Notes: generated from the sequence alone by a model not told the origin. A stretch of 17,571 nt of DNA from Candidatus Hydrogenedentota bacterium (GCA_034408725.1 JAWXCN010000099.1:1-17571); one strand, 5' to 3'. Shown: positions 4,948 to 15,734, counted from the first letter of the stretch. Translations and numbers: made by a program.

Positions 4948-6210
4948 ATGCATCTTCGTTATCCATCGTTAGTATTGGCTCTCCTGTTCGGGCTTATGGC
5001 GCCATTGAATACACCGGGCCAAGTAACGGGATTTCTTGGCACGGGCGAAACCACGCACTTTCCCATTGGCTTCTACGAACTGCCACAAGGCGATGCCGCA
5101 CTACAGGCCATGGCAGATGCCGGGGCAAATCTTATTCGGTGCGGTTCCCGCGCAGACCTCGACCGGGCACAGCGCGCGGGAATGCACGGATGGGTGACGC
5201 TGCCGTTGCACGCAGGAGCGACCGATTCGCTTCGCACTCAAATCGAGGACGTCGTGGATCACCCCGCGCTCGCCATTTGGGAAGGGCCGGATGAAATCGT
5301 TTGGAACTTCACGGCGTTCAGCGGGCTCCACAAGTCGATGGGCGTCTACGAACACGCGGATGAATGGTGGCTTCAAACGCGCCGCTCCATCAAGTATTCC
5401 GAATCTAAAGCAGCCGAAATCATTCCGAACATGCGCGCGTCTGTCGAGCTTATTCGGTCTATCGATACAAAATCACGCCCGGTTTGGATGAACGAGGCGT
5501 TGCGTAGCGACGTGAAATTCGTGCGCCAATACCTTCCATTCATTGACATTGTCGGCTGCGATATCTATCCCGTGACCGGCAAGGAGCGGAAAATCGAACG
5601 CATGGCCGGCGCAACCGATCGCTGGGTACAGGCCGGCAAGGGAAAGCCCGTCTGGATGGTGATGCAGGCGTTTTCGTGGGACGAACTCGGAGAGGACTAC
5701 GTCGCACGGGGCACGGCCTACCCGAGTTTCGCCGAATCGCGATTCATGGCCTACGATGTCATTGCGCACGGCGCGAAGGGGATCATGTATTGGGGTTCAA
5801 CGTATCTCAAATCGGAAGACTTTCGCGGCTCGTTATACACGTTAATATCCGAACTGACAAGCCTGAACGCTTTCCTCGTCGCGCCGGACGAACCTGATGT
5901 GAAACTCCGATTGATCGAATTGACCGAGGAACTTCCGGGCTACGGCGTCGCCATGGCCGCACGGCGATCCGGCAGTGACTGGATGATTGCGTTGATCAAT
6001 GAAGATGCGATACCGCGCATGGCCGTTGAAGTCTCCGGCCTCGAAAGAATCGAAGGCCATGATCTCATGCTGCTCTACGGCGAAGAAACTGCCCGCGTGA
6101 CCGGCGGCGAAATCGTTGTCCGGTTGCAGCCGAAGGAAGTGAAAGTGTTTTCCACCTCGCGCGCATTCGAGTCGGCCCGCCGCGATCTACGTGAATATCA
6201 GGGGAAGTAG
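4948..6210 (+). CDS. Secreted hypothetical protein with a probable glycoside-hydrolase-like TIM barrel
   Basis: AAGGGGGG RBS, hydrophobic signal-peptide-like N-terminus, and motifs FPIGFY, HPALAIWEGPDE, DIVGCDIYP, KPVWMVMQ and AHGAKGIMYW resembling GH-A-like barrels. Family assignment is by eye only. Confidence 0.55.
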   Translation: MHLRYPSLVLALLFGLMAPLNTPGQVTGFLGTGETTHFPIGFYELPQGDAALQAMADAGANLIRCGSRADLDRAQRAGMHGWVTLPLHAGATDSLRTQIEDVVDHPALAIWEGPDEIVWNFTAFSGLHKSMGVYEHADEWWLQTRRSIKYSESKAAEIIPNMRASVELIRSIDTKSRPVWMNEALRSDVKFVRQYLPFIDIVGCDIYPVTGKERKIERMAGATDRWVQAGKGKPVWMVMQAFSWDELGEDYVARGTAYPSFAESRFMAYDVIAHGAKGIMYWGSTYLKSEDFRGSLYTLISELTSLNAFLVAPDEPDVKLRLIELTEELPGYGVAMAARRSGSDWMIALINEDAIPRMAVEVSGLERIEGHDLMLLYGEETARVTGGEIVVRLQPKEVKVFSTSRAFESARRDLREYQGK

Positions 6211-6305
6211 CTCAGGAAACGTCTAATTCTTGGTTTGGTCGAATACCCTTGAGGGCGGCGCGGTGAAGCTGGAACAAGATCATTCGTACTATTTTCGTAA
6301 ATCGG

Positions 6306-6314
6306 TGGTATCAT
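6306..6314 (+). promoter_or_regulatory. Putative extended -10 promoter (TGgTATCAT) for the micro-ORF pair
   Basis: TGnTATCAT lies 27 nt upstream of ATG 6342 in an AT-richer stretch; no convincing -35. Confidence 0.45.
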
Positions 6315-6341
6315 GAACAATCACCCGAAGGAGGTCTTTGC

Positions 6342-6440
6342 ATGAAGCACGTTAAAACGGTTTCGCAATCCAAACTTCCGAAGATGGCCGCGAAACCCCC
6401 GGCGCCCGCGAAAAAGCCGAAAAAAGTGAAGGTCGCGTAA
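6342..6440 (+). CDS. Small basic peptide 1, 32 aa: MKHVKTVSQSKLPKMAAKPPAPAKKPKKVKVA
   Basis: Strong RBS (GAAGGAGG, 6327-6334) 7 nt before the ATG; TAA at 6438-6440; paralogous to the next micro-ORF. Below the size cut-off of the ORF track. Confidence 0.8.
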   Translation: MKHVKTVSQSKLPKMAAKPPAPAKKPKKVKVA

Positions 6441-6467
6441 CCCGGTCACAACGAAGGAGCTAGTCGC

Positions 6468-6560
6468 TTGAAGCACGTCAAATTGATCTCGCAGGCGCAG
6501 TGGCCCAAAATGGCTGCCGCACCTCCGCCGCCTAAGAAGTTAAAGAAAGCGAAAGCGTAG
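6468..6560 (+). CDS. Small basic peptide 2, 30 aa: MKHVKLISQAQWPKMAAAPPPPKKLKKAKA (TTG start)
   Basis: RBS GAAGGAG (6453-6459) 8 nt before the TTG; TAG at 6558-6560. 12 of the first 17 residues are identical to peptide 1, with six synonymous codon differences among them. Confidence 0.78.
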   Translation: MKHVKLISQAQWPKMAAAPPPPKKLKKAKA

Positions 6561-6620
6561 GTTTCGCCATCGTGCTCGTAATACGATTTAGGGGGTAAAG
6601 GGCGCCGAACCTGGCGTCGC

Positions 6621-7358
6621 TTACTTCGCGAACGGGTCGTTGGCCGGGTCTTTGCTCCAGGTGTATTCGGTGCCTTTGGCGATTCCGTCGGCGGTTTGTT
6701 CGCCATACACCCTCGCGATTACTGCGAGCGCCATGTCGATGCCGGCCGACACGCCGGACGACGTCACAAACTTGCCGTCTTCGACCCAACGCGCCTTGGA
6801 CTGCCATTCGACTTTCGGGCCATTGCTGATGAGCAGGCTGTAGAATTCCTTGTTGCAGGTGGCCTTGTGTCCATCCAGGATGCCGGCCTTCGCGAGAATG
6901 GCGGACCCTGAACAAACTGAGAGGACGAGTTCCGCGGCGTCGCTGCGTTGTTTGAGAAATTCGTGGCACGCCGTATTTGTCAGTTGTTTGATCGTGCCCG
7001 CGCCGCCAGGGATCATGAGAATATCGACGTGGGGCGCATCGGCAAACCCGTAATCGGCAACGACCTTCGGTCCGGACCAGTTGCCAGCTTTATCGCTCAT
7101 CGTGCCGGATGCCACGGGGCCGGCTTCTTCGGCGATCATGATTACACGCAACCGCTCGGCGCCAACGCTGATAAACATTTCCACCGGGCCGAACACATCC
7201 AGCACCTCGAAACCCGGATACAGCACTACGCCAAGGGTCTTCGCCGAGTTCTGCTCCGTTCCGGACCGGTCCTGCGCGGCCGCCTGATATCCGGCGGCGC
7301 TGAAGAGCGCCAACACTATCGCTGCAATTGCGCGACGATAACCATATTGAAAAGCCAT
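6621..7358 (-). CDS. DJ-1/PfpI (ThiJ, InhA-like) family protein with N-terminal signal peptide
   Basis: GVVLYPGFEVLDVFGPVEMF, DILMIPGG, nucleophile elbow SVCSGS, RWVEDGKFVTSSGVSAGIDMAL; AAGGAAGGA RBS; hydrophobic leader ending in AAAQ. Confidence 0.9.
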   Translation of the reverse strand: MAFQYGYRRAIAAIVLALFSAAGYQAAAQDRSGTEQNSAKTLGVVLYPGFEVLDVFGPVEMFISVGAERLRVIMIAEEAGPVASGTMSDKAGNWSGPKVVADYGFADAPHVDILMIPGGAGTIKQLTNTACHEFLKQRSDAAELVLSVCSGSAILAKAGILDGHKATCNKEFYSLLISNGPKVEWQSKARWVEDGKFVTSSGVSAGIDMALAVIARVYGEQTADGIAKGTEYTWSKDPANDPFAK

Positions 7359-14506: not shown

Positions 14507-15133
14507 ATGAATGAATTGGCGCAATCACCGAAGTTAAGGAAGCCCGTTCCTGGATGGGAATGGGGCCTTTCCTTCTTTCTGACTTCCGTGTTGCTGACGG
14601 GTTTGTTTGTGTTCACCGTCCAGTTCTTTGGCCTGTCAACCAGTGCGCACTCAAGGTTCATCGCTATCTGGATAGTGACACTTGGAATGCTTTCGTATGG
14701 GATCGCGAAAGTCCGCAGGTTTCGCAAGAGCGTTATCATGGCGAGTCTAATTGGTGTTGTAGTTGCCACGTACCAATCGACAGGTTTCGTTGCAAAACTT
14801 GGCGAAGCGGAAGCGACTTCTTTTGCAGCAGTGCTGATTGACGAAATGCAGGCGTATCATTCGCAGTACGGGCACTACCCAAGTCGCGATGCGTTGGGGT
14901 TCGATGGCGAGACGTGCGCGCGCATTATGAATAAGTGGGATGCACTGCGATCAGAAATGTTCGTGTCCAGATTTAATTCGTGCGGCCATGCGGTTGCGGG
15001 CGGACGCGTCGTTTCGATCAAGGGCGTAGATAATTCAGGTTTGATTACTGTCAGAATCTCAGCGGCAAGCCTCGCCCCAGGACGACGTTTAAGCTGGGAT
15101 TGGGAATCCGAGGAGTGGGTGTTGGACCGGTGA
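14507..15133 (+). CDS. Hypothetical membrane protein, 208 aa (about three N-terminal TM helices)
   Basis: AAGGA RBS 9 nt upstream; three hydrophobic segments followed by a soluble domain; fills the gap between the ftsK promoter region and the next gene. Confidence 0.65.
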   Translation: MNELAQSPKLRKPVPGWEWGLSFFLTSVLLTGLFVFTVQFFGLSTSAHSRFIAIWIVTLGMLSYGIAKVRRFRKSVIMASLIGVVVATYQSTGFVAKLGEAEATSFAAVLIDEMQAYHSQYGHYPSRDALGFDGETCARIMNKWDALRSEMFVSRFNSCGHAVAGGRVVSIKGVDNSGLITVRISAASLAPGRRLSWDWESEEWVLDR

Positions 15134-15164: not shown

Positions 15165-15734
15165 ATGACGACGACACCTTTTCAGGCGGAAGAACATCAA
15201 CGTGCGGCAGTTCGCAAACTGGTCGAACAGATCGCGGCTATACCCTGCGTGCGCCGCGTGATCCTCTTCGGCTCCCGCGCACGGGGCGACGCGGATGATC
15301 GCTCCGATGTGGATATCGCTATAGACGCCCCGGGCATCACGCGTCCCGAATGGGTAGCAATGCTTTTTGCGGCGGAAGATGCCGATACATTGCTTGAGAT
15401 TCAATTGGTAAATCTGGAAGAAGCCGAAGGTAAATTCCGCGAATCCATTGAGGTGGAGGGGATCGTGTTATATCCTGAAGATCAAAAACAAAAGCCTTCT
15501 GGCTTAACATTTCTTGAAAACGTGGCACTAATCTGCGGAGTAGGATTGGCCGCATCCATTTACATTTCGATAATGGGGCCGCTATCGCACTGGCTTAATG
15601 ACAGGTTATTGCCATGGTGGACGTACGCTGGATTTGCAGCAATGATGACCGGAATATTTGGCGGAGGTTTATTGAGTTGTATCCTAATTGGGAGATTGCG
15701 AGATAATCCACCGTGGATACGTCGGGGTCGGTAA
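15165..15734 (+). CDS. Minimal nucleotidyltransferase (MNT, Pol-beta superfamily) domain fused to two C-terminal TM helices
   Basis: RVILFGSRARGDADDRSDVDIAI (GS...DxD motif) and the typical MNT end FRESIEVEGIVLY, followed in frame by ~85 aa with two hydrophobic helices. Confidence 0.8.
   Translation: MTTTPFQAEEHQRAAVRKLVEQIAAIPCVRRVILFGSRARGDADDRSDVDIAIDAPGITRPEWVAMLFAAEDADTLLEIQLVNLEEAEGKFRESIEVEGIVLYPEDQKQKPSGLTFLENVALICGVGLAASIYISIMGPLSHWLNDRLLPWWTYAGFAAMMTGIFGGGLLSCILIGRLRDNPPWIRRGR

Follow-up and report, generated by a model that had tools for sequence, protein, structure and literature searches.

Two very short genes, here called pepA and pepB, lie in tandem in the window, which is the whole 17,571-nucleotide stretch of DNA from a Candidatus Hydrogenedentota bacterium that was analysed. 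They are real, ancient paralogous genes that are under purifying selection at the protein level, and they belong to a family in which one short N-terminal module is joined to C-terminal tails of many kinds. Our preferred reading, which is tentative and to which we give a probability of roughly 45%, is that pepA and pepB encode precursors of exported cationic peptides, the leader of which would be recognised in trans by unlinked machinery.

The pepA and pepB gene pair

Both genes belong to the Lys/Pro-tailed members of what we call the MKH-leader family. pepA is located on the plus strand at 6342-6440, starts with ATG and codes for 32 amino acids; its paralogue pepB is located on the same strand at 6468-6560, starts with TTG and codes for 30 amino acids (coordinates include the stop codons). 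The earlier note on this DNA had described two open reading frames that start 126 nt apart and are each preceded by a Shine-Dalgarno (SD) sequence at normal spacing, and these positions were confirmed. The SD sequence of pepA is GAAGGAGG at 6327-6334 (plus strand), with the ATG 7 nt further on, and that of pepB is GAAGGAG at 6453-6459 (plus strand), with the TTG 8 nt further on. The intergenic gap is 27 nt long.

Each product can be divided into a leader-like module and a tail. The module of pepA (residues 1-17, MKHVKTVSQSKLPKMAA) is encoded at 6342-6392 and its polycationic core or tail (residues 18-32, KPPAPAKKPKKVKVA) at 6393-6437; the corresponding parts of pepB are encoded at 6468-6518 (residues 1-17) and 6519-6557 (residues 18-30, APPPPKKLKKAKA), all on the plus strand. 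Alignment of the two proteins requires one gap and gives 67% identity. A composition count found 10 Lys in pepA and 8 in pepB and neither Asp, Glu nor Cys in either of them, exactly as had been stated before.

The pair had also been placed downstream of an extended -10 element. A sequence TG-n-TATCAT can indeed be read by eye at 6306-6314 (plus strand), but a scan of 6100-6750 with a sigma-70-type consensus revealed no site, and the element is thus a reading only and a weak promoter candidate. No Rfam family matched the region 5900-6900 at E<=1. The upstream neighbour of the pair codes for a 420-aa secreted-looking protein with a weak GH42-like match only, and on the downstream side lies a DJ-1/PfpI gene in convergent orientation (6621-7358, minus strand). 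A weak terminator-like hairpin on the minus strand at 6548-6568, which overlaps the pepB stop codon, probably ends this convergent gene; altogether, two terminator-like sites were found, compared with 1.2 in shuffled sequences. In four DNA sequencing runs the contigs were identical to the window wherever 6150-6650 was covered, and both genes were covered in two of the four. No RNA run was listed among the sequencing runs that contain this DNA.

Selection acts on the encoded peptides

Comparison of pepA with pepB gave a pS of 0.94 and a pN of 0.20. Synonymous sites are saturated at this low pN, which shows that the duplication is old and that the peptide sequence has been preserved. The two products are identical at 19 of the 29 aligned residues that follow the start, and at 11 of these 19 the codons differ. 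The argument from synonymous codons, for which six residues had originally been cited, is therefore stronger than it was claimed to be.

A search for homologues and a comparison of substitution rates across them had been proposed as checks, and both speak for genuine genes. Six-frame profile searches of whole genomes identified frame-intact homologues in related genomes. For the Lys/Pro-tailed orthologues, 12 pairs were computable, eight of which have a pN/pS of 0.00-0.20 at a pS of at most 0.65, and the remaining four a pN/pS of 0.22-0.56; two near-identical orthologue pairs contain no synonymous changes.

When 80 family members were anchored at their start codons, information was present at codon positions 1 and 2 and absent from position 3. 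Synonymous codons are mixed throughout: Lys2 is encoded by AAG in 37 and by AAA in 34 members, His3 by CAC in 53 and by CAT in 27, and Pro13 and Ala16 use four codons each. Upstream of the start, these 80 members have one conserved signal only, an SD-like stretch rich in purines between -13 and -9; since the set had been pre-filtered for such a stretch, the SD is not independent evidence there. Among unfiltered profile matches, 21 of 21 carry a GGAG, GAGG or AGGA-like block according to our own reading, and homologues from three genera retain both the reading frame and the SD. In the own genome (the genome to which the window belongs), nine of the 11,740 SD-preceded starts of small ORFs carry the motif M[KR]H[VIL][KQR]..[ST], compared with zero or one start for each of 22 permuted control motifs.

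Distribution of the Lys/Pro-tailed peptides

The Lys/Pro profile (A4) was made from an alignment of 16 sequences with lengths of 27-35 amino acids and has the consensus M-K-H-V-K-x-x-S-K/Q-x-K-x-P-A-x-A-x-x-P-..-K-x-K-P-V/A-K-x-K. The tail motif of pepA, P..K.KP[VA]K.K, is common to 15 other family members. Full-length matches to A4 were found in 12 genomes from three genera (g1, g6 and g9); a further copy is truncated at a contig end, which brings the number to 13 of the 14 genomes of these genera, the single exception without an A4 match being G004. The Lys/Pro family has so far been found only in Candidatus Hydrogenedentota. In a search of genome contigs, six confirmed loci have record titles that give Candidatus Hydrogenedentota and one is labelled Nitrospiraceae, whereas 22 pattern matches outside the phylum were not confirmed. 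Arrays of three copies are present in G009, G064 and G065 (two arrays in the latter), and pairs are present in G012 and G066. Two contigs of G065 (L099 and L101) are labelled "uncultured Nitrospiraceae"; this genome shares its genus with MAGs titled Candidatus Hydrogenedentota and has the same peptide arrays, and the label is probably wrong.

Protein libraries contain few of these peptides. A profile search in 1.84 billion representative proteins gave three matches, the window peptide and two near relatives; pepA is present in this library as a 32-aa predicted protein (P0001). In JGI metagenome contigs, profile A1 gave 247 pattern matches, of which one, an identical copy, was confirmed, and none of the 345 pattern matches of profile A6 was confirmed.

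At five loci of genera g6 and g9 (L052, L056, L058, L060 and L061) a sulfatase gene directly adjoins the Lys/Pro arrays. The numbers of sulfatase matches per genome (29 in G000, 58 in G009 and 28 in G067) put chance adjacency at roughly 1-2% per locus. There is no sulfatase gene near the window pair.

A common leader-like module on unrelated tails

The N-terminus of the two peptides had been described as leader-like, and the wider family bears this out. A pattern scan of 47 loci and the window yielded 64 small ORFs with a leader-like start, and about ten more leader ORFs are located in the own genome on contigs C7, C17, C150, C171, C200, C204 and C222. The leader pattern is M-[KR]-H-[VIL]-[KQR]-x-x-[ST]-[KQR]-x-x-x-P-A-x-A-(G). 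Positions 1 to 16 or 17 recur, and beyond them at least eight unrelated C-terminal types follow, so that the same module of about 17 residues is found on all of them. In addition to the Lys/Pro tails these types include C..YLL.GD.S.F.EC, C.IFP.K.KC, other two-Cys loops, FSSNPIKAYLMMKKGS, an N-x-T type (K.xPxN[ATV]T.T[LI]) and several hydrophobic, helix-like tails. Exactly two Cys are present in at least four tail types, which would fit disulphide-bridged extracytoplasmic peptides.

To describe the module separately from the tails we used a leader-only profile (A5; 66 distinct rows, 18 positions). Pro13 and Ala16 are conserved in at least 90% of the 66 sequences, and conservation ends after position 16-17. 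The end of the leader had been proposed to lie near PKMA/A, and the conservation boundary is located there (P-x-x-A, then A or G): the window peptides have Ala16-Ala17, many relatives Ala16-Gly17. Met1 and His3 are invariant in all 66 aligned leaders, with His3 being demanded by the search pattern that collected them. A5 matches the leaders of pepA (E 4.6e-6) and pepB (E 2.0e-4), both of which were members of the profile. At E<=0.001 it matches 27 of 53 further genomes in the family to which the window belongs, and four of 82 genomes from elsewhere in the phylum; relaxing the threshold to E<=0.01 gives 35 of 53 and 16 of 80. Random matches would not be expected to concentrate in one family in this way. 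Genomes that were absent from the profile are matched too (e.g., G007, G035, G072 and G077), and the number of leader matches per genome reaches 11 (G065), with at least nine in the own genome.

Residues 6-12 of pepA (T-V-S-Q-S-K-L) are polar or charged, and a Sec-type h-region of at least seven hydrophobic residues is absent from the leader as read from the alignments. When the Cys-type core was searched alone for copies with a Sec-type N-terminus, MKH-headed copies only were found, including a second, diverged copy. Judging from these sequences, the family has an architecture of leader plus variable core.

Fusion of a Lys/Pro peptide to Peptidase_S74

In two species the gene of a Lys/Pro member continues in frame into a Peptidase_S74 domain and a coiled coil (L060:702-1136 on contig C668 of G067 and L059:3-362 on contig C173 of G066). 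The fusion joint is in both genomes the exact normal C-terminus of the Lys/Pro relatives. The S74 match covers residues 29-87 and profile positions 1-57 of 58 (E 1.4e-16), and the pN/pS of the fusion between the two species is 0.10. The Peptidase_S74 intramolecular chaperone cleaves itself off at the Ser with which the domain begins. By analogy, the fusion would liberate a 28-residue peptide that equals the stand-alone forms. The added domain matches the C-termini of tail-fibre families from phages, and the peptide occupies the place of the tail-fibre shaft. No S74 domain was found in the own genome.

Gene neighbourhoods of family members

A tabulation of neighbours, which the earlier note had recommended, was carried out with 569 flanking ORFs from 55 regions; these were clustered, and the recurrent clusters were annotated. 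No recurrent maturase, peptidase or exporter was found among them, and the claim that neither a maturase nor a transporter is adjacent to the window pair proved correct. The recurrent neighbours are sigma-54 activators, histidine kinases, DUF1559 pseudopilin-like proteins, sulfatases, GFO/IDH/MocA oxidoreductases, BlaR1-type M56 proteins, a porin, solute-binding proteins and ABC ATPases, i.e., families that are common in these genomes and are not RiPP maturases. Sigma-54 activators are located near the peptides in 11 of the 55 regions. The idea of sigma-54 promoters was rejected, as none of 82 peptide upstream regions reaches nine of the 12 consensus positions.

The peptides of the N-x-T type are followed directly downstream by a same-strand gene for a GT2 protein of about 470 amino acids in all four loci (L109:7949-8062, minus strand, which is C171:12358-12471 of the own genome; L078:378-491; L094:8013-8123; L095:6985-7092), with a gap of 25-31 nt in three of them. 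This GT2 is an HpnB/CruG-like, lipid-type glycosyltransferase, which weakens the idea that the N-x-T type are glycopeptides. In these loci, the small peptide may act as a partner of the membrane glycosyltransferase or be its substrate.

One locus of G019 (L083:1-4225, contig C282) contains a gene for a hydrophobic-tailed leader peptide; behind it on the same strand come two GNAT genes, a gene for a CPBP/Rce1-like protease and genes for an ABC ATPase and an ABC-2 permease, an arrangement that resembles a bacteriocin locus. Two GNATs also follow a leader pair in the own genome (C7:45844-46248). Several members lie within ordinary operons. An ORF of 38 amino acids whose MKH-type start is weaker (L106:7943-8059, own genome C200:77462-77578) ends in an ATGA that also contains the start codon of a ferritin-like gene, which suggests translational coupling. 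A 63-aa leader peptide with a hydrophobic helix (loci L082:6492-12184 and L088, in G012 and G066) is present in two species with a pN/pS of 0.04 and is flanked by a phosphate-selective-type porin gene and an operon for sulphate-type solute-binding and ABC import proteins. Three tandem leader peptides with differing tails are encoded at L107:7611-8413 (minus strand; own genome C222:8410-9212), with an anti-sigma-like gene upstream and a gene for a 1384-aa LVIVD/BACON/lipase protein downstream, all on one strand.

Comparison with known families and systems

Searches with the window peptides in Pfam, NCBIfam, PADLOC and PHROGs gave no matches (no NCBIfam family even at E<=10). A profile search against PDB chains returned two insignificant rows (E 0.17 and E 2), and the best score in the ESM Atlas was 0.77, which is under any useful level.

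SCIFF precursors have a leader that starts with MKHIK, and a likeness to SCIFF/ranthipeptides had been pointed out on this ground. The likeness does not go beyond the start of the leader, and membership was rejected: the peptide model TIGR03973 misses the window peptides, these contain none of the six Cys that are required C-terminally, and a TIGR03974 maturase above the cut-off is lacking. The own genome is 92% complete. Across all of it, TIGR03973 gave a single match at E<=1, which is unrelated and located on another contig, away from the window peptides; the best radical SAM match to TIGR03974 reached 73.7 bits, whereas the cut-off is 425; and a search for PqqD/RRE domains gave nothing. Regarding the generic features of RiPP precursors, a conserved leader with a variable core is present; no recurrent modifying enzyme was found in the 55 regions, and no PqqD domain in the own genome.

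A C39/PCAT exporter was considered as the reader of the leader and rejected. PF03412 is present in 33 of 54 family genomes, yet its distribution does not follow that of the leader: no C39 was found in G065 despite 11 leader matches, nor in most g4 genomes, which also have leader matches, and several leader-free genera carry C39. The clear C39 protein of the own genome is a 280-aa membrane protein without ABC domains (C98:23343-24182, minus strand). C39-domain proteins of 260-330 amino acids recur in many genomes of the family.

Several known systems share part of these features. Nif11- and NHLP-type leaders (prochlorosin-style) are roughly 60-80 residues long, and trans-acting maturases are known for them; as in the MKH family, one leader is found on many paralogous precursors with hypervariable cores, the genes are scattered or in tandem, and the enzymes are unlinked. 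The MKH leader differs from them in having only about 17 residues and no detectable sequence relation (Pfam and NCBIfam are silent), and neither a LanM-type enzyme nor a C39 exporter is linked to the MKH peptides. Double-glycine bacteriocins and microcins resemble the family in their short, non-hydrophobic leader, which in the MKH family may likewise close on two small residues (AA here, AG in many relatives), and in their small cores, which in the MKH family are cationic, hydrophobic or putatively Cys-bridged; moreover, one MKH relative is located in a locus with CPBP and ABC-2 genes. Their leaders are unlike the MKH consensus, MKH[VI]K..SK...PA.A, and the distribution of C39 does not follow that of the family. 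Sec signal peptides are similar in having a positive n-region and, in the c-region, Pro at -4 together with small residues at -3 and -1 (P-A-x-A), but in them a hydrophobic h-region, which the MKH leader lacks, separates the two. In composition, but not in sequence, the window peptides are similar to proline-rich cationic antimicrobials and to the Lys/Pro/Ala tails of histone H1-like proteins, all being short, cationic, rich in Pro and free of acidic residues; the window core differs in that it is Lys- and not Arg-based and of bacterial origin.

Discussion

The conserved N-terminal module, the abrupt loss of conservation behind it, the unrelated tails, the tandem arrays and the occurrence of two-Cys and helix-like tails lead us to read the products of pepA and pepB as precursors. 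Each would consist of a non-hydrophobic, Lys-rich leader of 16-17 residues and a short polycationic Lys/Pro core. The leader, M-K-H-V-K-x-x-S-K/Q-x-x-x-P-x-x-A-A/G, would be the module recognised by machinery whose genes lie at other sites in the genome, probably an exporter, a leader peptidase or both, and cleavage may take place after the small residues 16/17. Because the leader has no hydrophobic region, export by Sec is not expected. The freed core of 13-15 residues, cationic and proline-rich, would work outside the cytoplasm, maybe as an antimicrobial or as a polyanion-binding peptide, with further modification being optional. This reading is supported by the tandem arrays of two to three diverged copies, which are common, by selection at the protein level, by the bacteriocin-like locus of G019, by the S74 fusion and by the confinement of the family to one lineage. 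Its main weaknesses are that no such machinery was found and that some members are located inside ordinary operons; the latter placements (porin/sulphate-binding, ferritin, GT2) would equally suit small accessory or regulatory proteins.

The main alternative, which we regard as doubtful though serious, is that the products are unprocessed small basic proteins, intracellular or membrane-associated, and that the conserved N-terminus itself is functional. This N-terminus might serve as a helix that docks onto a common partner or as an NH2-X-X-His (ATCUN) metal site formed by the free amine of Met1 and His3, with the Lys/Pro tail binding nucleic acid or another polyanion. Met1 and His3 are found in 66 of 66 leaders, though the search pattern required His3, and the Lys at position 2 should prevent removal of Met1. 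Many members are located within or coupled to ordinary operons (ferritin by ATGA, sulphate uptake, HpnB-like GT2), no recurrent exporter or peptidase was found in the regions surveyed, and the hydrophobic-type members resemble small proteins that span the membrane once and have a cationic N-terminus on the cytoplasmic side. A single intracellular partner is, however, hard to square with eight or more unrelated tails, and the presence of exactly two Cys in some of these points to an oxidising compartment. The variable copy number and the many family genomes without the module argue against a core cellular role, and the S74 fusion indicates release of a free short peptide. In a sub-case of the exported-precursor reading, which the earlier note had put forward as its first option, an unlinked enzyme would modify the Lys/Pro core before removal of the leader, which would make the peptides true RiPP precursors. 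We see a small chance for this: the combination of leader and hypervariable core on many genome-scattered paralogues speaks for it, as do the trans-acting maturases of Nif11/NHLP-type precursors, whereas RRE/PqqD and a SCIFF-type maturase were not found in the own genome, no modifying enzyme recurs next to the Lys/Pro members, and the sole enzyme that is consistently adjacent to any tail type is the HpnB/CruG-like glycosyltransferase, an enzyme for lipids and not for peptides.

Some family members directly precede or overlap a larger gene, as regulatory upstream ORFs do, whose translation controls the downstream gene irrespective of the product. For the window pair such a role is very improbable, since it has no same-strand downstream gene (the next gene is convergent), purifying selection covers the whole peptide including the tail, and the conserved part is N-terminal and not at a stall site. 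Next to no weight is left for chance ORFs or a non-coding element. The ORFs are short and gene callers rarely predict them, as the small number of matches in the 1.84 billion proteins illustrates, but conservation has a three-base periodicity, pN/pS is well below 1, three genera retain the frame and the SD, Rfam is silent at E<=1, and the motif is enriched over the permuted controls.

The exported-precursor reading can be extended to the whole family, in a form that we consider unlikely. The MKH module of 17 residues would then be a new kind of sorting or processing signal, read by export or maturation machinery specific to Hydrogenedentota and serving a repertoire of small effectors, with the Lys/Pro peptides as polycationic cargo. 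In these sulphatase-rich mat organisms, such cargo might bind sulphated polysaccharides or be a proline-rich antimicrobial.

Families of leader-tagged small peptides as such are a known kind of thing. The MKH leader, its lineage, its reach over many tails and the lack of a linked system are undescribed in the libraries and in the parts of papers that were searched. The available parts of two papers on Hydrogenedentota genomics (PMC10866078 and PMC11406978) do not mention bacteriocins, leader peptides or small proteins, a literature search for Hydrogenedentota together with RiPP gave no paper naming the phylum among the matches listed, and searches with the peptide sequence strings gave nothing useful. 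If pepA and pepB do encode exported precursors, an uncultured phylum that is known from metagenomes only has its own family of leader-tagged small peptides outside the curated families. The MKH module would then be a handle to mine small secreted or modified peptides that gene callers have overlooked, and it would raise the question of what recognises so short and non-hydrophobic a tag at the N-terminus. Owing to their small size, the Lys/Pro cores could be synthesised and tested directly. If the products are unprocessed instead, they are still members of an undescribed small-protein family, clearly under selection, in which the common N-terminus would be the functional motif.

A separate part of the window differs in base composition. 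Between 14000 and 16000 the G+C content is 0.49-0.52, compared with 0.55-0.62 in the remainder; this stretch encodes a family-less ORF of 208 amino acids (14507-15133) and a Pol-beta-type nucleotidyltransferase (15165-15734), and it may be a small acquired cassette.
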